64,000 bases of DNA from Gemmatimonadaceae bacterium (GCA_036560265.1 DATBRO010000268.1:8508-72507), one strand, 5' to 3'; shown: positions 11,817 to 43,601, numbered from the stretch's first letter. A program made the numbers and translations. Notes: generated by a model not told the origin, from the sequence alone.

Positions 11817-11858
11817 GCGACTCAGGAGGGCAACTCGCGTTCCAGCATCGGAATGCGA

Positions 11859-35460: not shown

Positions 35461-35550
35461 CAAGTGGGCCCGGGCTTGTCAGTTGGGATGGGCTAGTCGG
35501 CCTGTCACTTGCCTCCTGAAACAGAGTCGAACCTGTTCAGGAGAACTTGT

Positions 35551-35751
35551 ATGACAGATGATCTTCGGGACGAAGGACTCAAGGACGAGATCAAGGGCAC
35601 TGTCGAGGAAGCCGAGGGACGCCTCCGCAATGCGGTCGGTGGTCTGACAGGTGATACGAGTGAGCAGATCAAGGGGAAGGGCCAAGAGCTGAAAGGGAAA
35701 GTGCAGCGCAAAATCGGCGAGGCCGAATCGGACGCGGACCGGGACCTTTAA
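35551..35751 (+). CDS. CsbD-family general stress protein
   Basis: MTDDLRDEGLKDEIKGTVEEAEGRLRNAVGGLTGDTSEQIKGKGQELKGKVQRKIGEA is the CsbD pattern. AGGAG lies upstream of the ATG at 35551. Confidence 0.8.
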   Translation: MTDDLRDEGLKDEIKGTVEEAEGRLRNAVGGLTGDTSEQIKGKGQELKGKVQRKIGEAESDADRDL

Positions 35752-35767
35752 GGCGAATCCGCGCACG

Positions 35768-35812
35768 AAACGCGGGCGGCGCGACGTGGCCTCGCCCGCG
35801 TTTCCTTTTCTC
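35768..35812 (+). terminator. Rho-independent terminator after csbD-like gene
   Basis: AAACGCGGGCG (35768-35778) and CGCCCGCGTTT (35793-35803) form a perfect 11-bp stem, followed by ccttttctcc. Confidence 0.7.
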
Positions 35813-35836
35813 CTTCCGAACCCGCGCTAGCTGGGG

Positions 35837-36859
35837 TCAAGCGCTCGCGCTCGCGAGCGGTTGCTCCGTGTCGCGCATCTTCCTGGCGAGCCGTGGCCGG
35901 GAGATGCCGAGCATTCGTGCGGCAGCGGAACGGTTGCCGTTCGTGAGCCGCAGCGCGATCTCGATCGCCTCGCGCTCGACCGCGGCGAGCGTCTTGCCGG
36001 TGCGCGGGATGCGGATTTCGCCGACGGAATCAGAGCCGCTGGCGGAGGTGCGGCGCAGAATGAGGAGATGCTCCGGCTGAATCGTACGCTCGTCCCCACT
36101 GAGAATCGCCGCGCGCTCGATGACGTTGCGGAGCTCGCGAACGTTGCCGGGCCACCGATGCGAGTAGAGCGCCTCGAGCGAAGCCGGCGACAGCACTTTG
36201 ACCCGGCCGCTCTCATTGACGGATTCCGCCAGACACTGACGCGCGATGAGCGCGATGTCGTCCTTGCGGTCACGGAGTGGCGGGAGCGAGATCGTGAAGA
36301 CGTTGAGTCGATAGTACAAGTCTTCTCGAAACGCGCCGGTCGAAACTGCCTGCTCGAGTAGCGGATTTGCCGCCGCCATCAAGCGGCAGCGAATGTCGAC
36401 TTCTTCGGTGCCGCCGAGCAGGCGAACCTTTCTCGATTCGAGCACGCGGAGCAGCTTGGGCTGGAGCCCAAGGGGCATGTGATGGACTTCGTCGAGAAAG
36501 AGCGTTCCAGCGCCCGCGAGCTCGAACAGGCCGCCCTTCCGCTTGCGTGCATCGGTGAATGCGCCACGCTCGTGCCCGAACAGCTCTGACTCGAGCAAGT
36601 TTTCCGGAATGGCCGCGCAGTTCACGGCGACGAACGGCTGTTCCGCGTGCGCTCCGGCGTAATGGATTCCGCGGGCAAAGAGCTCTTTCCCAGCGCCGGT
36701 CTCGCCGAGGAGCAGGACCGTTGTTCGCGGGGAATTTGCGACGCGTCGCGCGAGCTCCAGGGCTTCGGACAGGGCCGGGCTCCGCCCCACGATGTTCTGA
36801 AAGCCGATATCGGAGGACAGCGAGACGTGCGATGGACGCGCGGCCGCCACTTCCGTCAT
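35837..36859 (-). CDS. Sigma-54-dependent transcriptional activator (bEBP) without an N-terminal sensory domain
   Basis: Walker [12 protein letters not shown], sigma-54 contact loop ERGAFTDA (GAFTGA variant), [10 protein letters not shown], and a C-terminal Fis-type HTH ([16 protein letters not shown]). Only about 25 residues precede the AAA+ core. Confidence 0.9.
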
Positions 36860-37929
36860 TGCACCGCCGCTGCTGACGTGCCGCCGCTCACCCGATCAGC
36901 CAATCCCGAACGCAAGCGCACCTGGAGTCCGGCGATCATTCCACCGAAACCCGCCATGCGAGCCAGCTCGAGAGATCGACGCCACGATTCCTTGGCGCGC
37001 GGCAGCTCGCCGCAGTCGCGGCAGGCGTCGCCGAGGTCGGTGAGAATCTCGACGCGGAGCTCCACGTCTTCTCCCATCTGACTGAGCGCGAGCGCGCGTT
37101 CCAGAAGCGTGATCGCGTGCGGTGACGCGCGCTCTCGCACGCGCGCGACGCGCGACAGCAGCCGCAGCGCCGCCGCCCTCCGCGTACTGTCCCGCCGTTG
37201 TTCGGCGATGCCGTACGCACGGGTTGCCGCGGCATCGGCTTGATCCAACTTGCTGGTGGCGAGGAAGAGCGCGGCCCGGTTTTCTTCGACGATTGCTTCG
37301 GACGCGATGTCGTTCAGCGTATTCGCGAGCTCCAACGCGCGCTCCAGGACGTCGTGGGCGCGCGCATAGGACGCTTCCCGCGTGTACAGCACGCCGAGGT
37401 TGTTGAGCACCCAGAGAACCGCGTCGCGCTCCTCTTCCTGCTCGAATGCCGCGAGCGCCAACCGGAAGTGCGCCACGGCCTCGTCAGTGCGGCCCTGCAC
37501 GTCGGCGACGACCCCGAGATTCTGTTGCACCATGCCGGAAAGGCGTCGGTCACCCAAGCGGTGCGCGAGGCGCGCCGCTTCTCCGTACCACCGCTCCGCC
37601 GCATTGAGATCGCCGCGGTACTGGGCGATCGTCCCCAAACAATTCAGCGCATGGGCGCGCCCCCCCCGATAGGCGATGGCGTCGGCGACCGCCAAACTCT
37701 GGGCGTACAGGTCGGACGCCGCTGAATGGTTGCCGCGATCGCGCAGTATCGATCCCTTCCACCGGAGAACGTCAGCCAACGCATCACTGGGTCCAACTGG
37801 CAGCAGCAGAGCGAGAGCGTGATCGCAGGCATCGATCGCGTGATCCGGATCCGCACCGCGCCACGCGCTGAGCGCTTCACGAGCCAGCGATCTGGCCTGA
37901 TCCAATGGGTGGTCGCGCTCGGCGACCAT
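36856..37929 (-). CDS. Tetratricopeptide-repeat protein
   Basis: Repeated 34-40 aa helical units (A..Y..AL.....GD....A......G) across 357 aa. The stop overlaps the bEBP ATG (ATGA at 36856-36859). Confidence 0.75.
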
Positions 37930-38003
37930 AAGGCACTCCGCTCTCTCTCTGCTGTGTTTTCCCTGAAATTGCTGGGCGCGGGGGCATCCCCGCGCCGCTC
38001 AGC

Positions 38004-38660
38004 TTAGTACGCGCCGTCCGGATTCGCTTCGCCTGAAGGATCCGCTTCGCCTGAAGCCAGTATCCAACCGGAGAAATGGCCAACGTTGAACGTGGCCGTG
38101 TGCGTGAAGAGGCTCAGGAACGCCGGGACCGTTTCGGTCACAATGGCCAAGCCATCCGCGTTCAACTCGAGGTTGTCGCCCTCGAAGTGAGCACCGCTGA
38201 GTAGCGACGAGCCCAGCAAGCCAACGTCGGTACCATCTGTATTCTGCGTCAGCGACACCTTCTTGCTGAACGTCAAATGCGGCTCGAAACGATACGCGAC
38301 GGGCGCTCCCGCAAGAGCCGTTACCGTGATCGTCTCTGTCGAGCTAAGCGCGCCATAGGGAATTACGATCGTGAGACCCACCTCTGAATTCGACGATACG
38401 GCACCACCGGGACCGGCCGTAAACGACCAGCTCACGTCGGCCGGAAGAGGCGTCGTGCGATGGACGGGCGGAATCAGAAGGCCAGTCAGCGTGTTGACGG
38501 TTCCGCCGATTACGCCGCCGAGGCCCAGCAGATTCTGCGGGGTTGATCCCACTCCCTGAATCGAGGGCGCGGTGGGAGCGACGTCGCTACAAGCGGTGCC
38601 AACCAGGGCCACGGCGACCGCAATCCCAATGAACACGCTGACGCTCTTCCTCATTTCCAT
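38004..38660 (-). CDS. Secreted lipoprotein of unknown function
   Basis: Lipobox in MEMRKSVSVFIGIAVAVALVGTACSD. The mature part is Gly/Thr/Ser-rich and beta-strand-like. The C-terminus has GEADPSGEANPDG from an 18-nt direct repeat. GGAG precedes the ATGs at 38660 and 38654. Confidence 0.7.
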   Translation of the reverse strand: MEMRKSVSVFIGIAVAVALVGTACSDVAPTAPSIQGVGSTPQNLLGLGGVIGGTVNTLTGLLIPPVHRTTPLPADVSWSFTAGPGGAVSSNSEVGLTIVIPYGALSSTETITVTALAGAPVAYRFEPHLTFSKKVSLTQNTDGTDVGLLGSSLLSGAHFEGDNLELNADGLAIVTETVPAFLSLFTHTATFNVGHFSGWILASGEADPSGEANPDGAY

Positions 38661-38693
38661 CTCCGGTTATGCGGAAAGTTGCGTGTCTTCTAT

Positions 38694-38710
38694 AGCAACC
38701 TCTGGTCCAG
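38694..38710 (-). promoter_or_regulatory. Candidate sigma-54 (-24/-12) promoter
   Basis: The minus strand reads CTGGACCAGAGGTTGCT, against the consensus YTGGCACGrNNNTTGCW. The invariant GG and GC have canonical spacing. The GC lies about 35 nt upstream of the lipoprotein ATG. Confidence 0.6.
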
Positions 38711-38843
38711 ATCGGCATATAGCGTTACAGCAACGGCTTACGAAATAATGACATTTGTGATCCACGCACTATTGTAACGTTCCATTACATACCCCGCCAG
38801 ATGACATATAACATAACGTTGCAGCTATAACGGATCAGCCCGG

Positions 38844-38870
38844 AACAAAACGGCCCCAACTAGGGGGCCG
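38844..38870 (-). terminator. Rho-independent terminator of the efflux operon
   Basis: The minus strand reads CGGCCCC-ctagt-TGGGGCCG followed by TTTTGTT, about 40 nt after the permease stop. Confidence 0.7.
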
Positions 38871-38910
38871 CAAAGATCGAGAACTTGGGCGCTTTACGCT
38901 GTGACGCGCG

Positions 38911-40131
38911 CTACTCGTATCGCAGCGCGATGATCGGATCCATGACTGCGGCACGGCGTGCTGGCCAGACGCCGAAGATCAGGCCGACCGCCGCCGAGAA
39001 CATGAAAGCCAGGGCGATCGCGCCGATCGAGATCTTCACGTTCCACGCGAACGCTTTGCTCATCGCTGTCGCTCCACCGCTCCCGACGACGATGCCGATG
39101 ATTCCGCCGAGGCAGCACAGCACAACTGCTTCGATCATGAACTGCAACAGGATGTTCGAGCGCGTCGCGCCGAGCGCCTTGCGAATGCCGATCTCCCGAG
39201 TGCGTTCGGTGACCGATACGAGCATGATGTTCATGATTCCGATGCCGCCGACGAGCAGACTCACGGCCGCGATGCCGGACAGCAAGTACGTGAACACCTG
39301 CGTCGTCTCACCGAGCGTGTTCAGGAAATCCGCTTGGCTGCGCATCTGGAAATCATCCGGCTGATTCTGCCGAAGACGGTGCTCGCGGCGGAGCGCTTTC
39401 TGAATGTCCGCCATTGCGTCGGGGATTTTCTCCTCGGTCGCCGCTAGCACGCTTATCGAGCGCAGACGATCGGTCCCGAACACGCGGAACCGGCCCGTGT
39501 TGAGCGGAATCAGAATCTGCTCGTCGGGATTGCCGAAGGGCGATGCTTGGCCCTTCGATTCGAGCACGCCCACGACGAGAAACTGGATGCCGCGGATGCG
39601 GATGTTCTCGCCCAAGAGTGCGTCGGTCGCCTCGAGCCCCATGTTGGTCGCAACCGCGGGTCCGACGACGGCGACGCGTTGTTTGGCCTCGTCTTCGTTG
39701 CGCGTGAACATCCGGCCAGCCATCAGCTTGTACCTGCGCACCTCGAGATAATTCGCGCTCGTTGCCACGACTGACGCGCTGCCGTTCTTGTTCTGCCACG
39801 TGACTTGGAGATTGCGGTTCATCTCCGGCTGGACTGCGGTCACGTTCTCCGCGCGGTCCTCGATGGCCTTGGCGTCATCCATCGTGAGCTTGGTATTCTG
39901 ATCAGCGATGACGATCCCCATCCCACGCTGTTGACCGGGCGTCACCGTCAGCAGCGTGGTGCCGAGCGACGCGATGCGCTCTTTGACGGCGGTCTGAGCG
40001 CCGGTGCCGAGAGCGACCATCGCGATCACGGCCGCGACGCCGATGACGATGCCAAGCATCGTCAGGAGCGAACGCAGTTTATTCGCCCGAAGTGCGCCAA
40101 GCGCGACGGAGATGATTTCGCCGAGGAGCAT
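38911..40131 (-). CDS. MacB/FtsX-type ABC transporter permease (no fused ATPase)
   Basis: N-terminal TM helix (ALRANKLRSLLTMLGIVIGVAAV), a roughly 220-aa periplasmic domain, then a three-TM FtsX module (ERTREIGIRKALGA). I prefer the ATG at 40129-40131, 16 nt after the adaptor stop. Confidence 0.85.
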   Translation of the reverse strand: MLLGEIISVALGALRANKLRSLLTMLGIVIGVAAVIAMVALGTGAQTAVKERIASLGTTLLTVTPGQQRGMGIVIADQNTKLTMDDAKAIEDRAENVTAVQPEMNRNLQVTWQNKNGSASVVATSANYLEVRRYKLMAGRMFTRNEDEAKQRVAVVGPAVATNMGLEATDALLGENIRIRGIQFLVVGVLESKGQASPFGNPDEQILIPLNTGRFRVFGTDRLRSISVLAATEEKIPDAMADIQKALRREHRLRQNQPDDFQMRSQADFLNTLGETTQVFTYLLSGIAAVSLLVGGIGIMNIMLVSVTERTREIGIRKALGATRSNILLQFMIEAVVLCCLGGIIGIVVGSGGATAMSKAFAWNVKISIGAIALAFMFSAAVGLIFGVWPARRAAVMDPIIALRYE

Positions 40132-40147
40132 GACGCGGTCGCTTGGG

Positions 40148-41866
40148 TTACCGCGGGCCACCGCCGCCCCCGCCCGGTCGCCCGCCGCCTCCAGGACCGC
40201 CACCGCCCTGGTTCATGCCGGGAACGCCACCCATGCCCTGTCGAAACCGATCGTTCTGCTGTTGACGCTGCGCCTGGAGCGCGAGCGAAGTGAGAAGCGC
40301 GACCTGTTCGCCCTCTCCGAGTCCGTTGATGACCTCAGTGTAGTCGAAATTTCCGGCGCCGAGCATCACCATGCGCGGCTCGAAGCTCTTGCCCTTCGCG
40401 ACGAAAACAAGTCCGGGACGAACGCGCAGCCCACTACCGCCACGCTCGGTGTTCCCGAGCTGGAGCTGCGGCTGTTGAGCGCCGCTCCCTGCTGGCGGAG
40501 CAGTGCCCTGCGCGCGCATCTCGCGGAAGCGGCAGGCGCCCGCGACTCGAGCATCGACGCCGAGCGCGGCGTAGATCTTTTGCGACTCCTCGCGCATCGC
40601 GTTGCGGTCGATCTCACCGCTCCGCATGCGGTCGCGCAGCGCATCGAGCTTCTTCGCTTCGGCAGGCTTCTTGTCCATCGCGGTCTTCACGGCCGCGCAA
40701 TCCTTGTCCGAGACTTCGGGCATCTGGAAGCCGCCACCCCCTCGACCGTCTTGCTGCGCGCCGAGCGCGACCTCGCCCGGTGAGGTAGTTGAGCGCTGCG
40801 CCGTCGTAGAGGCGCCACTCGAGTTCCCGCCGCGCATCCCGCCCCCACCGCCCCCCCCGCCCCCCCCGCCACTCCCCATCCCACCGCGGCCGCCCATCGC
40901 GCGGAGCTGCGCCTGGACGCTGTCCGGATTCAGCCCGAGCAGTGGTGCCGTGGCGACCGCTTCGCGCATGGTCTTCACCGCGTCGTTCGGTACGGCAAGC
41001 ACGTTCTTCCGCTCTTCGATCGTGACCGACACCTCGCCGTTCATTCCGGGCTTGAGCGCGCCGTCGAGGTTACTCAGCGTCACGAGCACGGGGAACATCG
41101 TGACTCCCTGCTGCACCACGGCTTGCGGCTCGATTTTTTCGACGACTCCGCTGAAACGGCGATCCGGATACGCGTCCACGATGACAGTCGCCACCTGCCC
41201 CGCACGGATCTGGCCGATGTCGGTTTCATTGAACTGCGCGCGCATCCGGACGCGACCCAAGTCGGCCATCTTGATCAGCGTCGTGCCGCCACCGAACGCG
41301 CCGGTCGCGGAGGTGATGACCATCCCCTGTGAAACGGTCTTCTCGATGACGGTCCCGGCGACAGGCGCGGTCACCGTCGCGTCCTCGAGCCGCTGCTTGG
41401 CGAGATCGAGGTTCGCCCGCGCGCGAACTACGGACGCGACGGCGTTCGCGTAGTCCAGTGCGGACGCTTCGTGCTCCTGCGCCGTGATGACGCGGGATTT
41501 GAACATCTCGTCCGAGCGGCGCTTCTGCGAGATCGAGACCTCCAGCTTCGCCTCGGCGGCCTTCACGTCCGCGTCCGCCTGGTTGTACTGATTTCGCACG
41601 TCTCGCGTATCGATCTGCGCAATGAGAGCGCCGGGTTTGACCTGTGTGCCGGTTTCCACCAGCATCCGCGTGATCAACCCCGACGCCTTCGACTTGACCT
41701 CCACGATGTTGATCGGCTCAACCACGCCATTGGCTTGCGCGTCGATGATGATGTCGCGCCGCGTGATCGGAGCAGTCGTAACCGACGGCGTCTTGGCTTT
41801 GTTGCGGCTGCACGCCGGAGCGAGCGCGATCGCGACAAGCGCGACGAAGAACAGAGAGCGCTTCAT
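40148..41866 (-). CDS. Periplasmic adaptor (membrane fusion protein, HlyD/MacA family) with a long low-complexity insertion
   Basis: Lipobox LAPAC, then lipoyl and coiled-coil hairpin features (APVAGTVIEK). An insertion of about 180 aa contains a run of 11 Gly, and the tail is Gly-rich. Confidence 0.85.
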   Translation of the reverse strand: MKRSLFFVALVAIALAPACSRNKAKTPSVTTAPITRRDIIIDAQANGVVEPINIVEVKSKASGLITRMLVETGTQVKPGALIAQIDTRDVRNQYNQADADVKAAEAKLEVSISQKRRSDEMFKSRVITAQEHEASALDYANAVASVVRARANLDLAKQRLEDATVTAPVAGTVIEKTVSQGMVITSATGAFGGGTTLIKMADLGRVRMRAQFNETDIGQIRAGQVATVIVDAYPDRRFSGVVEKIEPQAVVQQGVTMFPVLVTLSNLDGALKPGMNGEVSVTIEERKNVLAVPNDAVKTMREAVATAPLLGLNPDSVQAQLRAMGGRGGMGSGGGGGGGGGGGMRGGNSSGASTTAQRSTTSPGEVALGAQQDGRGGGGFQMPEVSDKDCAAVKTAMDKKPAEAKKLDALRDRMRSGEIDRNAMREESQKIYAALGVDARVAGACRFREMRAQGTAPPAGSGAQQPQLQLGNTERGGSGLRVRPGLVFVAKGKSFEPRMVMLGAGNFDYTEVINGLGEGEQVALLTSLALQAQRQQQNDRFRQGMGGVPGMNQGGGGPGGGGRPGGGGGGPR

Positions 41867-41868
41867 GA

Positions 41869-43197
41869 TCAGGACAAGTCGCGGCCGATGATCGCTTCGA
41901 TCTGGGCGCGCGCGATCCGATAGTCCTGACGGGCCTGGATCAGCGCGGCGCGGGCCTGGTTGAGCTGCGATTGAGACGTGAGAAGGTCCAGCAGCGTCGA
42001 GGCGCCGAGCGAATACCGCTGCTGCTGGACGCGAAGATCTTCCTGCGCTGCCAGCACCGATGCCTGCTGAATACGAATGCGCTCTTCCGCGGTGCGCAGC
42101 GCGCCGAGCTGCTGCACGAGGCTCTGCTGCGCGGCGAGGCGGGCGTCGCGGAATTGTGCCTCGGCGTTGTCTTGCGCCACCCGCGCGCGGACCTGCTGAT
42201 CCTCGCGGCTGAAGTTGTTGAAGAGCGGATAATTCAATCGAACATTGAAGCTTTGACCGTACGCATACGGGCCAAAATTCACTTGATAGCTGCTGTCCTG
42301 GCGATTGCCGTTGTAGTTGTACGACAGCGTGATCGTCGGCAGGTACGTCGATTTTGCCGAGCGTGCCGCGGCATTGGCCGCGCGCAGCTGCATGCTGGCT
42401 TCCTGCACCGCCGGGCCCTCGAGTGCCATGCGATCGAGCGACGCGCTGTCGACGTGCGTGATCGGTAGATCCACGGTGTCCGCGGGATTCGCGGTAACGA
42501 CGAACGGAGTGCCGACGAGTCGTGTGAGCGAGGCGCTCGCCACGCGAACGCCGTTCTCGGCGGTGATCAGCGCCAGTCGCGCGTTGCCGACCTGGATGAG
42601 CGATCGCAGCGAGTCGGACATCGTCGCTGCGCCGGCCTGGACCCGCGCGACCGCGGCCGCCAACTGCGCCTGGGCCTGCTCCAGCTGCGCGCGAGCCGCG
42701 GCTTCAGATTCGCGGGCGGCGAGGATGTTCGCGTACTGCGTTTTCACCTGTAGCGCGATAGTGAACCGTTGCGCGACCTCGTTGGCTTCGGCGGCGTCTT
42801 CGTCCGCCTTGCGCGCGTTCAAGTCGCTGAACCGGCGGAACCCATCGAAGAGCTCGAGGTTCGCCCCCAATCCCGCCGAGTACTGCCAGGGAGAGAATGG
42901 CGTCGTCACCGGTCCGCGGAGCGGATCGAAGCGCTGTCCACTCTGCTTGCTCTGGGCCATGCTCGCGGAAACGCTCGGCAGAAACGCGCCGTAGGCGGAG
43001 CGGACCGCGGACGCCGTCGTGCGCAGTTGCCCGCGGGCCTGTACGGCCGCCGGCGCATTGCGTTGTGCGAGCGAGACGGCCTCCTGTAGGGAAATCGGAT
43101 GCAGAGAGTCCTGCGAGACCATCGTCGCGGTGCTTTGTGCGGCCGCGACGCTCAGTGGAGCGATTGTCGAAAGGACGAGCAACTGCCTCAACATCAT
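41869..43197 (-). CDS. TolC-family outer membrane efflux protein
   Basis: Signal peptide MMLRQLLVLSTIAPLSVAAAQS and two repeats of the TolC coiled-coil/beta pattern. The track ORF extension to 43494 overlaps the upstream gene. Confidence 0.85.
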   Translation of the reverse strand: MMLRQLLVLSTIAPLSVAAAQSTATMVSQDSLHPISLQEAVSLAQRNAPAAVQARGQLRTTASAVRSAYGAFLPSVSASMAQSKQSGQRFDPLRGPVTTPFSPWQYSAGLGANLELFDGFRRFSDLNARKADEDAAEANEVAQRFTIALQVKTQYANILAARESEAAARAQLEQAQAQLAAAVARVQAGAATMSDSLRSLIQVGNARLALITAENGVRVASASLTRLVGTPFVVTANPADTVDLPITHVDSASLDRMALEGPAVQEASMQLRAANAAARSAKSTYLPTITLSYNYNGNRQDSSYQVNFGPYAYGQSFNVRLNYPLFNNFSREDQQVRARVAQDNAEAQFRDARLAAQQSLVQQLGALRTAEERIRIQQASVLAAQEDLRVQQQRYSLGASTLLDLLTSQSQLNQARAALIQARQDYRIARAQIEAIIGRDLS

Positions 43198-43199
43198 CG

Positions 43200-43601
43200 T
43201 CACCTGCACGCGTTCGTCGTTTTCTTCGCAATCGAGTCGCGCCGCGCCTTCTCCAGACTGTCGCGGCGCTCCATCTCTTTTCTGCGGAGCTCGAGCTTCG
43301 CCTGCTGCCCGGGCGTGAGGATCTGCAGCATCTGCTGATGCGCGACCTTCTTGATGGAATCGAGCTGTGGTCTCACGGGCCGCATGACCGCGCCGATCTG
43401 GCAATTTCGCTCGTCGAGGAGTGAATCCATCGTCGAACGCTGTGCCTCTGACAGTGCGAGGTCGTCGTACATGCGATTGCGAGAGGGTCCCCAATGCCCC
43501 TTCTCATGACCGAGCACACGATCGGCCGAGAAGCCGAGCACGCCGCCCACGAGAACGGCACCGAGCAGAAACATCAGAGCTTGTTGCTTGGAACGCTGCA
43601 T
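43200..43601 (-). CDS. Spy/CpxP/ZraP-family periplasmic protein (LTXXQ motifs)
   Basis: N-terminal TM/signal sequence and two LTXXQ-type motifs (LSEAQ, LTPGQ) in a helical 133-aa protein. Confidence 0.6.
   Translation of the reverse strand: MQRSKQQALMFLLGAVLVGGVLGFSADRVLGHEKGHWGPSRNRMYDDLALSEAQRSTMDSLLDERNCQIGAVMRPVRPQLDSIKKVAHQQMLQILTPGQQAKLELRRKEMERRDSLEKARRDSIAKKTTNACR

Follow-up and report, generated by a model that had tools for sequence, protein, structure and literature searches.

We analyzed a stretch of 64,000 nucleotides of DNA from a soil Gemmatimonadaceae bacterium (hereafter, the window) and propose that three co-directional genes on its minus strand form a self-activating sigma-54 operon, with an activator gated in trans and a self-cleaving lipoprotein, which has been shortened from a four-gene cassette; for this explanation as a whole, our confidence somewhat outweighs our doubt. 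The three open reading frames (ORFs), whose products are a lipoprotein, a protein made up entirely of TPRs and a sensor-less sigma-54 activator (bEBP), coincide exactly with those of a preliminary description of the sequence, and the genes are considered real because homology searches returned many homologues for each. Every part is of a known kind, and the combination is undescribed in the literature searched, as the preliminary description had supposed. The features are as follows, in the direction of transcription.

38850..38871, minus strand: intrinsic terminator that follows the MacB-type permease gene upstream (scan: 8-bp stem with 7 G-C pairs, then TTTTGTT)
38773..38825, minus strand: candidate enhancer (UAS), two TGnAACGTTA copies (38814-38823 and 38775-38784) in an imperfect inverted repeat (repeat finder, families D1/D3, inverted repeat I1)
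38756..38769, minus strand: second palindrome-like block, (T)GTG-N8-CAC(A), with the -24 element ~55 nt downstream (TGTG...TCAC columns invariant in the 7-ortholog alignment)
38731..38741, minus strand: GTAAG-N3-TTG block between candidate enhancer and promoter (AA and TTG columns invariant in the 7-ortholog alignment)
38695..38709, minus strand: putative sigma-54 -24/-12 element TGGACCAGAGGTTGC, 34 nt before the annotated ATG of gene 1
38004..38660, minus strand: gene 1, predicted ZU5-fold lipoprotein, 218 aa (AlphaFold2, Foldseek and the Pfam matches of relatives)
38589-38591, minus strand: lipobox Cys24 of the gene 1 product, which ends the signal peptide
Lipoprotein residues 25-60: disordered linker (AlphaFold2 model)
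38052-38480, minus strand: ZU5-like β-sandwich of the lipoprotein, residues 61-203
38070-38078, minus strand: H195-F196-S197 motif of the lipoprotein
37975..37996, minus strand: G+C-rich intercistronic hairpin, GGCGCGGGG-AUGC-CCCCGCGCC, directly past the lipoprotein stop and without a U tract (spacer fold)
36856..37929, minus strand: gene 2, cytoplasmic all-TPR protein, 357 aa, a solenoid of 17 helices or ~8.5 repeats (Pfam, AlphaFold2)
35837..36859, minus strand: gene 3, sensor-less bEBP, 340 aa (Pfam)
36683-36706, minus strand: bEBP Walker A, GETGAGK, residues 52-58 (read from sequence)
36548-36565, minus strand: bEBP GAFTDA loop, residues 99-104 (read from sequence)
35873-35992, minus strand: bEBP Fis-type HTH (HTH_8, PF02954, residues 290-329, 3e-13)
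35827..35836, minus strand: deletion scar ccccagctag, the last codons and stop of a lost TPR-HD-GYP gene (blastn against the related locus L043)
35783..35802, no strand assigned: terminator-like hairpin where the bEBP gene and a CsbD-like gene converge (reported on the plus strand by the scan, with the complementary stem seen on the minus strand)

A spacer of 74 nt separates genes 1 and 2, and the stop codon of the TPR gene overlaps the start codon of the bEBP gene as ATGA, an overlap already claimed in the preliminary description and kept in 7/7 orthologs. Upstream, the terminator includes a GGGGCC-GTTTTGT block that is conserved in the ortholog alignment, which supports this terminator as the putative 5΄ boundary of the transcription unit, separating the operon from the upstream efflux genes; the hairpin at 35783..35802 marks its predicted 3΄ boundary. 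The stem of the intercistronic hairpin is shared by 6/7 orthologs, with compensatory changes, and may play a role in attenuation or transcript stabilisation.

The preliminary description had placed a sigma-54 promoter ahead of the first gene. We looked for a TGGCAC-N5-TTGCW-like element upstream of the gene, with exactly 10 bp between its GG and GC doublets. The sequence TGGACCAGAGGTTGCT at 38694-38709 on the minus strand agrees with the consensus at 9 of the 11 specified bases, has both doublets at exactly this distance and predicts a transcription start of gene 1 near 38684. The pattern match alone proves nothing, because TGG-N9-TGC occurs in the window at the chance frequency (30 found versus 31 expected) and is thus not rarer than chance. 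The weight of the element comes instead from the ortholog comparison, because all 11 specified bases of TGGACC-N5-TTGC are invariant in seven orthologous upstream regions that are otherwise 58% identical. Candidate elements were then scored by a weighted match to the consensus (maximum 20.5; 17.5 for the window element), and a score of at least 17.5 was found for 16 of 19 lipoprotein genes with an adjoining bEBP gene versus 2 of 13 TPR-HD-GYP-linked ones without it, the kinship of the loci being ignored, and for 1.5% of random 150-nt windows. Across these 32 related lipoprotein genes, predicted sigma-54-type elements are therefore almost confined to those adjoining a bEBP gene. Conservation of the element, the palindromes upstream of it and this correlation all support a sigma-54 promoter at the predicted position. 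Related elements elsewhere in the family include CGGCAT-N5-CTGCT and TGGCACG-N4-CTGCT, and the -24 hexamer of the window, TGGACC, deviates from the consensus TGGCAC.

Enhancer sites for bEBPs were expected ~70-150 bp upstream, and the conserved repeated palindromes lie at a suitable distance. In addition to the two TGnAACGTTA copies, a third, weaker copy of the repeat lies at 38719-38731, and the blocks GTAACGTTTTGTTAT and AAACGWTMC of the candidate UAS are conserved in seven orthologs. Other clades carry three CAAGAnTCTTG palindromes at the same place, such that the palindromes are conserved within a clade and differ between clades, and the recognition-helix region of the bEBP HTH differs likewise. 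This pattern suggests that the bEBP may bind the candidate UAS palindromes. The second block, at 38756..38769, resembles the TGT-N10-ACA sites of NifA-type activators. The GTAAG-N3-TTG block, of which similar versions are present at three other loci (L036, L038 and L015), may serve as an IHF-like site of DNA bending. A search for an RpoN box found none in the window or the fetched loci, and RpoN is present in the sole finished Gemmatimonadetes genome surveyed (PMC3372290, Table 1).

The product of gene 1 was initially described as a lipoprotein of unknown function; structure prediction, Foldseek and homologue alignment now point to a ZU5-fold domain with an HFS self-cleavage motif. Translation probably starts at the second ATG (38654, M3) rather than at the annotated one, because the homologues begin with MRK... 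and a GGAG lies 6 nt upstream of this second ATG. The N-terminus reads MRKSVSVFIGIAVAVALVGTAC|S, and all of 77 close homologues share Cys24, as do at least 90% of 150 diverse ones; typical LAAC, LAGC and LVSC lipoboxes are found in paralogues. With its signal peptide and lipobox, the protein is, as judged from its sequence, a bacterial lipoprotein. The window lipoprotein itself had no Pfam match (E up to 0.1) and no NCBIfam match. For most of residues 61-203, the AlphaFold2 pLDDT was above 90, and a Foldseek search of the PDB returned only ZU5 domains at ranks 1-18 (ankyrin, UNC5b and ZO-1; best E 2.4e-5, probability 1.00), with GAIN domains next. Among its 150 best relatives, 119 matched Pfam ZU5 (PF00791) at E up to 0.05, and 4/10 relatives examined exceeded the gathering score of 21 bits, with matches that span only model positions 2-37 of 97. 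On the AlphaFold2 and Foldseek results, the domain is modelled as a ZU5 fold. The family comprises ~1,100 clusters at 50% identity, and all genomic copies found were in Gemmatimonadota.

At the C-terminal end of this domain, H195, F196 and G198 are invariant in the 77 homologues, of which 71 have S and 6 have T at residue 197. HFSG was likewise read in 41/42 copies from genomic loci, down to 31% identity, the exception being a 96-aa fragment (L038). The autoproteolysis motif has been defined as H/S-F-S/T with a Ser, Thr or Cys nucleophile, located where the domain ends C-terminally and ahead of a long β-strand, as is also the case in PIDD, CARD8 and NLRP1, and both serine and threonine count as nucleophiles in ZU5/FIIND-type autoproteolysis (PMC3210808). 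In the lipoprotein, HFS immediately precedes a long β-strand (strand 188-203, AlphaFold2). As a sequence, the invariant HF[S/T]G matches the self-cleavage site of PIDD and Nup98, and self-cleavage of the lipoprotein most likely occurs between F196 and S197. In the AlphaFold2 model, HFS lies inside a continuous strand, not in a loop; many ZU5 domains, such as that of ankyrin, do not cleave. The likeness to the ZU5/FIIND/Nup98/GAIN group (PIDD, NLRP1, CARD8 and adhesion GPCRs) extends over the fold, the H-F-S/T motif before a long strand and the Pfam ZU5 matches of relatives, whereas only one strand and a short tail follow the predicted cleavage site here, with no UPA, CARD, death or toxin domain. 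Bacterial surface proteins with self-cleaving ZU5 domains have already been described, in which the domain is an N-terminal module of very large RHS or adhesin proteins (PMC3482391). In contrast, the domain here stands alone in a lipoprotein of ~200 residues, and its cleavage is predicted.

In the bEBP, the AAA+ core (Sigma54_activat, PF00158) covers residues 23-190 at 1.4e-63, AAA_lid_14 was also matched, and no Pfam domain precedes residue 23. The absence of an input domain, as stated in the preliminary description, applies to the window bEBP and to all of 21 bEBPs of its clade, which share the short architecture (337-352 aa). The canonical GAFTGA is replaced by GAFTDA (Asp at the fifth position), which is kept across the clade of the window; all clade bEBPs have an intact AAA+ core, in which the loop reads GAFTDA or GAFTGA, and an HTH. 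By sequence, the nearest solved relatives are NifA, ZraR, NtrC, FleQ and PspF. No NCBIfam equivalog cut-off was reached, and assignment as a PspF equivalog was rejected (TIGR02974, 246.8 bits versus a cut-off of 443.6; NF008622, 208 versus 529). No pspA-like gene was found in the neighbourhood of the operon.

The TPR protein matched Pfam TPR_12 at 9e-28, together with other TPR models, and its AlphaFold2 pLDDT was 92. Its closest structures are the peptide-binding TPR domains of LGN/Pins/GPSM2 (TM 0.7-0.76), with further matches to OGT, KLC and consensus TPR proteins; the top 50 structural matches contained no RRNPP protein. Orthologs are 67-81% identical. No defence-specific PADLOC model was matched at the locus, only generic TPR and bEBP-like (RtcR/PspF) models.

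Comparison with 41 other lipoprotein loci (42 including the window) altered the picture of a compact, self-contained triad. At 10 orthologous loci, a fourth, tightly coupled gene encodes a TPR-HD-GYP protein, a predicted c-di-GMP phosphodiesterase, and an eleventh contig (L044) ends inside a fourth ORF. When the window was aligned with L043 by blastn, positions 5251-6947 of L043 were missing from the window, i.e. essentially the whole TPR-HD-GYP ORF of 570 aa, and the flanks aligned at 86-88%. The deletion is clean, measures 1.7 kb and removes exactly the fourth ORF, and the scar retains the end of the lost gene. The sequence comparison thus indicates that the operon arose, probably recently, by deletion from a four-gene cassette ending in the TPR-HD-GYP gene. 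A genome may hold several paralogous cassettes, some of them in tandem pairs (e.g. L008 and L016). Many lipoprotein paralogues end six residues past the serine (HFS-GYIVAW-stop), and the tail beyond the conserved strand differs between gene-order classes.

According to the preliminary description, the TPR protein regulates the bEBP. This remains plausible, as a TPR-domain protein gene adjoins every one of the 21 clade bEBP genes, but it is not the only reading: six loci have the bEBP and TPR-HD-GYP genes without the free TPR protein, three have the lipoprotein and free TPR protein without a bEBP, and the lipoprotein gene is linked to a TPR-domain gene in 36 loci of the 41 (or of the 42 with the window), so that, on gene order, the lipoprotein is most often linked to a TPR domain, whether as a separate protein or joined to HD-GYP. 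The free TPR protein has three candidate partners, namely the bEBP, the TPR-HD-GYP protein and the lipoprotein.

We considered it unlikely, yet worth serious attention, that the free TPR protein mainly partners the TPR-HD-GYP enzyme, relieving or reinforcing autoinhibition of the phosphodiesterase by TPR-TPR contact, in which case the bEBP would be controlled otherwise, e.g. by c-di-GMP or its own level, and the TPR gene of the window would be an orphan remnant. Consistent with this, the free TPR protein is paralogous to the TPR half of the TPR-HD-GYP proteins (31-35% identical over ~190 residues), the two genes are tightly coupled at the 10 orthologous loci, and the six loci without the free TPR protein retain bEBP and enzyme; FleQ, whose AAA+ domains are among the nearest solved relatives of the bEBP, is a c-di-GMP-binding bEBP. 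However, the ATGA coupling of the TPR and bEBP genes is kept in all seven orthologs, the TPR gene of the window is intact despite the loss of the enzyme gene, and some loci pair the free TPR gene with a lipoprotein gene and have neither bEBP nor enzyme. By eye, the bEBP also shows FQN at the position of LFRS in FleQ, the arginine of which we take to be the c-di-GMP-binding residue. The nearest precedent is RcbA-RcbB of Vibrio vulnificus, in which the TPR protein RcbA acts in this way on the autoinhibition of the TPR-GGDEF enzyme RcbB; as there, the full four-gene cassette pairs a free TPR protein with a c-di-GMP enzyme fused to TPRs, here in one operon (PMC12282931); RcbB is a GGDEF cyclase, whereas the cassette enzyme is a predicted HD-GYP phosphodiesterase, deleted in the window, and the cassette also holds a bEBP and a ZU5 lipoprotein.

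A peptide-signalling circuit appears decidedly improbable. Here, cleavage at HF|S followed by unfolding or degradation would free a C-terminal peptide of 7-22 residues as the ligand of LGN-like TPR receptors, which would switch on the bEBP, together with the HD-GYP enzyme where the cassette is complete, in an autoinducing loop similar to Rap/NprR/PlcR (RRNPP) of Firmicutes. The frequent lipoprotein-TPR linkage, the multiple cassettes per genome, the invariant predicted cleavage site with its short remainder in many paralogues, the resemblance of the TPR fold to domains that bind extended peptides, a signal-precursor gene in first place in a probably self-activating operon and the tail that varies by gene-order class would all agree with such a circuit. 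On the other hand, the post-cleavage fragment is a nearly invariant core β-strand, without the diversification typical of signalling peptides; no peptide importer is encoded in the neighbourhood examined; and the folded domain of 145 residues far exceeds the needs of a pro-peptide. RRNPP systems (Rap, NprR, PlcR and PrgX) occur in Firmicutes, with HTH or phosphatase outputs. They share with our loci a cytoplasmic TPR protein beside an exported-protein gene, with a possibly releasable C-terminus, and several cassettes per genome; unlike them, the cassettes belong to a diderm phylum, have a bEBP and an HD-GYP enzyme as outputs, and encode a folded lipoprotein of ~200 residues in place of a pro-peptide. 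Membership in RRNPP was rejected because no RRNPP protein is among the 50 best structural matches to the TPR protein and because the adjoining gene has a folded product of 218 aa. In addition, cleaved ZU5/FIIND fragments normally remain associated (PMC3210808).

Finally, we gave very little credence to a secretion-coupled partner switch, in which the TPR protein would hold the lipoprotein precursor before export and be freed by export to act on the bEBP, such that operon expression would track export capacity or envelope state: it would explain the constant pairing of an exported-protein gene with a cytoplasmic TPR-domain gene, it fits the TPR-bEBP translational coupling, the 35-residue disordered linker of the lipoprotein could occupy the TPR groove, and the TPR chaperones IpgC and SicA, which bind type III secretion substrates, offer precedents (IpgC-MxiE and SicA-InvF), but Sec-exported lipoprotein precursors are expected to be too short-lived in the cytoplasm, the TPR-precursor contact is purely hypothetical, and the precedents rely on AraC-type activators and type III secretion, both absent here.

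The self-activating operon with a trans-gated bEBP most closely recalls PspF-PspA and HrpR/HrpS-HrpV, where the bEBP likewise consists of an AAA+ core and HTH only (~22 residues precede the core here) and a co-encoded cytoplasmic partner is the likely regulator; just as the psp promoter drives pspA, the operon of the putative sigma-54 promoter encodes the likely regulator. The partner here is an LGN-like TPR solenoid, unlike PspA, an ESCRT-III-like coiled coil, and HrpV, which is small and unrelated. Furthermore, the bEBP gene lies inside the operon that it would activate, whereas pspF is transcribed separately, and the product is a ZU5 lipoprotein rather than a system for secretion or membrane repair. 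Genes for a lipoprotein and a bEBP also form one functional unit in QseE-QseG-QseF of enterobacteria, where the target of QseG, in the periplasm, is a membrane histidine kinase that phosphorylates the receiver domain of QseF, which in turn activates sigma-54 promoters from upstream activating sequences (PMC6075780). In contrast, the operon of the window has no kinase, receiver domain or membrane-spanning transducer.

In the self-activating operon that we favour, sigma-54 RNA polymerase would bind the -24/-12 element, and the gene 3 bEBP would bind the palindromes 60-130 nt upstream and open the promoter by ATP hydrolysis. The resulting transcript would encode the ZU5-fold lipoprotein, the LGN-like TPR protein and the bEBP, and positive feedback would follow because the bEBP is encoded on the transcript that it would activate. 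The conserved hairpin past gene 1 would probably keep the lipoprotein in large excess over the regulators. Without an input domain, the bEBP would have to be gated in trans, and the likeliest gate is the translation-coupled TPR protein, which may act as an anti-activator or co-activator by protein contact. The lipoprotein would be exported and tethered at Cys24 via its flexible linker, and the F196-S197 bond would most likely be cut by the protein itself through an N-O acyl shift, with the last β-strand and acidic tail (22 residues) staying non-covalently held. The lipoprotein had been regarded as the only output of this regulation; this is doubtful, as predicted sigma-54-type elements also precede bEBP-less lipoprotein paralogues in related genomes.

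The three minus-strand ORFs reported in the preliminary description were all found in the window. They and their neighbors are arranged as follows.

38911–43494, minus strand: OEP, HlyD-type adaptor and MacB-type permease genes, immediately upstream of the cassette
38004–38660, minus strand: gene 1, lipoprotein (218 aa)
37975–37996, minus strand: intercistronic hairpin with a 9-bp G+C stem and no U tract, directly 3' of the lipoprotein stop
36856–37929, minus strand: gene 2, all-TPR protein (357 aa)
35837–36859, minus strand: gene 3, sensor-less sigma-54 activator (bEBP, 340 aa)
35509–35751, plus strand: CsbD-like small stress-protein gene, convergent with the bEBP gene

The all-TPR composition claimed for gene 2 was borne out by Pfam TPR_12 (9e-28), with repeats throughout. 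Likewise, gene 3 proved to be a bEBP without an input domain: PF00158 covers residues 23–190 and is accompanied by an AAA+ lid and a Fis-type HTH (residues 290–329), with no domain in residues 1–22. Walker A (GETGAGK, residues 52–58) and GAFTDA (99–104) can be read directly in the sequence. None of the NCBIfam equivalogs reached its cut-off for gene 3, and PspF, NifA, NtrC and others were all far below. The ATGA overlap of the TPR stop and bEBP start was also seen, and is present in 7/7 orthologs, with gaps of 45–240 nt in more distant clades. Gene 1 has two in-frame ATGs, M1 (38660) and M3 (38654). Because homologues begin with MRK and a GGAG lies 6 nt upstream of the second ATG, the only one for which it is well spaced, the true start is probably 38654. 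The intercistronic hairpin, which is kept with compensatory changes in 6/7 orthologs, may attenuate read-through or stabilize the upstream transcript. Rfam gave no match in the whole window, and thus the leader contains no riboswitch or small RNA of a known family. The convergent CsbD-like and bEBP genes have a terminator-like hairpin in common (35783–35802), and beyond the CsbD-like gene lie a PadR-family regulator and then a Kup potassium transporter, both on the minus strand. Upstream, the MacB-type permease has MacB_PCD and FtsX domains without a fused ATPase, and the HlyD-type adaptor contains long glycine runs. These efflux genes were rejected as members of the system because a terminator separates them from it and their synteny with it extends only to the ortholog group and one further locus, L008.

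A soil-metagenome contig (JGI 3300036854) carries the lipoprotein sequence, and every named homologue belongs to Gemmatimonadaceae. A pattern scan covering one genome per species yielded 40 loci, all from Gemmatimonadota, which a tblastn search sorted into five gene-order classes.

Class A: lipoprotein, TPR, bEBP, TPR-HD-GYP; the six closest orthologs (L002–L007) and L011, L016, L017, L019, L034, L036, L038 and L041
Class B: lipoprotein, bEBP, TPR-HD-GYP; six loci
Class C: lipoprotein, TPR-HD-GYP; about 14 gene pairs
Class D: lipoprotein, TPR
Class E: lipoprotein alone

The fourth protein carries TPR repeats followed by an HD_5/HD domain with HDVGK and HHERWDGHGYP motifs, and is therefore predicted to be an HD-GYP c-di-GMP phosphodiesterase. 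Loci reached via the TPR protein, with independent gene calls, gave the same picture: the order is lipoprotein, TPR, bEBP, TPR-HD, CsbD (opposite strand), PadR and Kup, and both downstream junctions are 4-nt overlaps or a 2-nt gap. The six orthologs share flanking synteny with the window (HlyD and MacB upstream; CsbD, PadR and Kup downstream). In the same slot downstream of HlyD and MacB, L008 (1992–6912) has two tandem lipoprotein/TPR-HD-GYP pairs, with neither a bEBP gene nor a sigma-54-like element.

These comparisons revise the earlier view of a compact three-gene module. L043, a contig from a sister sample, encodes a TPR protein 98% identical to that of the window, and, like the class A relatives, carries the TPR-HD-GYP gene. 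By blastn, window positions 40477–35835 correspond to L043 630–5250 and window positions 35836–33000 to L043 6948–9787, with flanks 86–88% identical. The 1,697 bp between them (L043 5251–6947), essentially the entire 570-aa TPR-HD-GYP ORF, are absent from the window, and the scar (ccccagctag, 35827–35836) represents the last codons and stop of that ORF. In L044, a contig that shares its sample with the lipoprotein-bearing contig L001, a fourth ORF begins by overlapping the bEBP stop and is cut by the contig end. Since the TPR-HD-GYP ORF is missing from the window between aligned flanks while its stop survives, the three-gene arrangement is, judging from these alignments, a derived state of a four-gene operon after a clean 1.7-kb deletion.

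The lipoprotein had no direct family match in Pfam or NCBIfam, and a profile search of PDB sequences returned nothing but noise and a signal-peptide match; its assignment required the fold and distant relatives. AlphaFold2, run with 77 homologues, predicted disorder in the first 60 residues and, with confidence, an all-beta domain spanning residues 61–203. In a Foldseek search of the PDB with this model, the best 18 matches were all ZU5 domains (ankyrin, UNC5b and ZO-1; best E 2.4e-5), followed by GAIN domains. Searching 1.84 billion representative proteins with a profile gave 1,096 clusters (E ≤0.001); among the best 150 of these, nearly all are 190–225 aa long and 119 matched Pfam ZU5 (E ≤0.05). 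Some relatives score above the ZU5 gathering score, but the match covers only the first third of the model. Three relatives of 376–388 aa (P0312, P0352 and P0363) contain two or three tandem ZU5-like stretches, nearly all others being single-domain proteins of about 200 aa. Cys24 comes after a hydrophobic signal sequence, and at least 90% of members retain it.

What stands out most in the lipoprotein is its C-terminus. H195, F196 and G198 are invariant in the 77 homologues; at position 197, 71 have Ser and 6 have Thr. Of 42 copies from genomic loci, with identities as low as 31%, 41 contain HFSG[YW]I[VL]A, and the remaining one is a 96-aa fragment (L038). The C-terminal peptide of the window lipoprotein is SGWILASGEADPSGEANPDGAY, and many paralogues end in HFSGYIVAW-stop. 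Across L002–L039, the tail after HFSGYIVA is ASGR[ED] or a longer acidic stretch where a bEBP gene or sigma-54 element is present, and a bare W/F or VD/MD in HD-GYP-only or lipoprotein-alone loci; this difference between gene-order classes may reflect ancestry only. PIDD and Nup98 cleave themselves at an HFS motif, and NLRP1 and CARD8 at SF|S; the motif lies at the ZU5 domain end, just before a long strand, and the nucleophile is Ser, Thr or Cys (PMC3210808). In bacteria, ZU5 domains that cleave themselves have been described as parts of giant toxins and adhesins (PMC3482391). From the motif and its position, we infer that the lipoprotein cleaves itself between F196 and S197. The stand-alone small ZU5 lipoproteins constitute a family of about 1,100 sequence clusters, and every genomic copy that was found is in Gemmatimonadota.

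We then considered the promoter. The window contains 30 instances of the bare pattern TGG-N9-TGC, where 31 would be expected; being at chance frequency, the pattern was rejected as promoter evidence in itself and replaced by a between-genome comparison. For the window and the six orthologs, the 240 nt preceding gene 1 were aligned. Mean identity was 58%, yet 11/11 specified bases of TGGACC-N5-TTGC were invariant. This supports the proposed –24/–12 element, TGGACCAGAGGTTGC (38695–38709, minus strand), 34 nt before the annotated ATG. Also invariant were the GGAG ribosome-binding site, the block GTAACGTTTTGTTAT and its partner AAACGWTMC, which together form an inverted repeat, a (T)GTG-N8-CAC(A) block and a GTAAG-N3-TTG block; the terminator of the upstream gene, placed at 38850–38871 by a terminator scan, was partly invariant. 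A repeat finder located TGnAACGTTA in the window at 38814–38823 and 38775–38784, with a weaker copy at 38719–38731. More distant clades have the promoter variants CGGCAT-N5-CTGCT and TGGCACG-N4-CTGCT and, at the equivalent place, three CAAGAnTCTTG palindromes; in the bEBPs of these clades the recognition-helix part of the HTH is different. A second sigma-54-like element, TGGAACGCGAGTTGC (11830–11844, minus strand), is probably a chance match because it lies only 13 nt upstream of the start of its ORF, a 541-aa Peptidase_S13 (D-Ala-D-Ala carboxypeptidase).

Upstream regions were further compared with the sigma-54 consensus by a simple weighted score. A score of at least 17.5 was reached by 16/19 lipoprotein genes with an adjacent bEBP gene versus 2/13 class C genes, these loci being related and hence not independent trials, and by 1.5% of 150-nt windows drawn at random from these loci. 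The association was the same in three sequence variants. Strong elements also precede three lipoprotein genes with no adjacent bEBP gene (L029_8097, L031 (2991) and L038_9851), which suggests that in some genomes the regulon extends beyond the operon, with bEBPs controlling unlinked lipoprotein paralogues. The L031 upstream region has AAGA..TCTT-like repeats as well. A search for an RpoN box in the window and 41 loci found none, which is uninformative at a 64-kb window size; RpoN is present in the single finished Gemmatimonadetes genome of one survey (PMC3372290, Table 1).

The TPR protein was modeled with a pLDDT of 92 as 17 helices, and its best structural match is the TPR domain of LGN/Pins/GPSM2 (TM 0.70–0.76), the groove of which binds extended peptides. 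The asparagines of its NxLG motifs (N96, N137, N177 and N217) are invariant among orthologs and, by analogy with LGN, could form a peptide-binding ladder. The protein has no signal peptide, its translation is coupled to that of the cytoplasmic bEBP, and it is paralogous to the TPR half of the HD-GYP protein (31–35% identity). All 21 bEBPs of the clade are 337–352 aa long and have a variable tail of about 20 residues, followed by FGFQNIVG, with which the conserved AAA+ core begins; GAFTDA is present in the window clade and GAFTGA in the others.

The best-supported model is that of a sigma-54 operon that would be switched on by its own bEBP from the upstream palindromes, giving positive feedback, with the hairpin at 37975–37996 probably tilting output to the lipoprotein over the regulators. 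Because a bEBP without an input domain sits in a positive loop, an external brake or key would be needed, for which the TPR protein is the obvious candidate. The earlier proposal that it regulates the bEBP could be retained in part: what favors it is genetic linkage only, and classes B and D each have one of the two without the other. The leading alternative has the free TPR protein act on the TPR-HD-GYP enzyme, as RcbA does on RcbB (PMC12282931). The window deletion, set against relatives that keep the predicted phosphodiesterase in 88% identical DNA, offers a possible natural comparison that separates the roles of the two TPR proteins. Bolder readings have the exported ZU5 protein contact TPR domains via a released C-terminal peptide, or via the precursor before export. 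Either would account for the consistent linkage of the lipoprotein gene to a TPR domain; however, the post-cleavage strand is near-invariant and no importer is encoded nearby, both of which speak against the peptide. In the fullest form, HF|S cleavage would free or expose the C-terminal strand and tail, and this peptide, or the pre-export precursor, would be read by LGN-like TPR receptors in the cytoplasm. We think it improbable that the lipoprotein is such a self-cleaving signal precursor or tethered ligand, with the receptors then switching the sigma-54 activator and, in the full cassette, the c-di-GMP phosphodiesterase. If true, a diderm phylum would have self-signalling circuits of a new class, based on the autoproteolytic domain family of the animal inflammasome sensors NLRP1 and CARD8, whose wider superfamily includes adhesion GPCRs. 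A role in defence was dropped, since the PADLOC matches were generic only.

The regulatory logic of the cassette resembles that of PspF-PspA and HrpRS-HrpV, although the bEBP falls below the PspF membership cut-off and the partner protein is unrelated. The literature searched yielded no description of the ZU5 lipoprotein, the TPR-bEBP pair or the cassette itself, in line with the preliminary description, which likewise did not recognise the arrangement; one survey of sigma-54 regulons does not mention Gemmatimonadota. Each part is of a known kind, namely a sigma-54 promoter, a bEBP, a TPR solenoid, a ZU5 domain and an HD-GYP enzyme. Together, on comparative sequence evidence, they make up a coherent, phylum-restricted signalling unit with a putative and unexpected eukaryote-like self-cleavage domain. 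Its value is that of a new, experimentally tractable cassette in a poorly studied phylum, and no long-standing question is touched. Through the invariant PIDD/Nup98-type motif of the family, a domain familiar chiefly from cell-death and inflammasome proteins of animals is connected with bacterial envelope and c-di-GMP signalling. Sensor-less sigma-54 activators are few, and in the known cases (PspF and HrpR/S) a partner in trans carries the signal. The Gemmatimonadota bEBP clade, always encoded beside a TPR-domain protein, would add a new testable case of such trans control.
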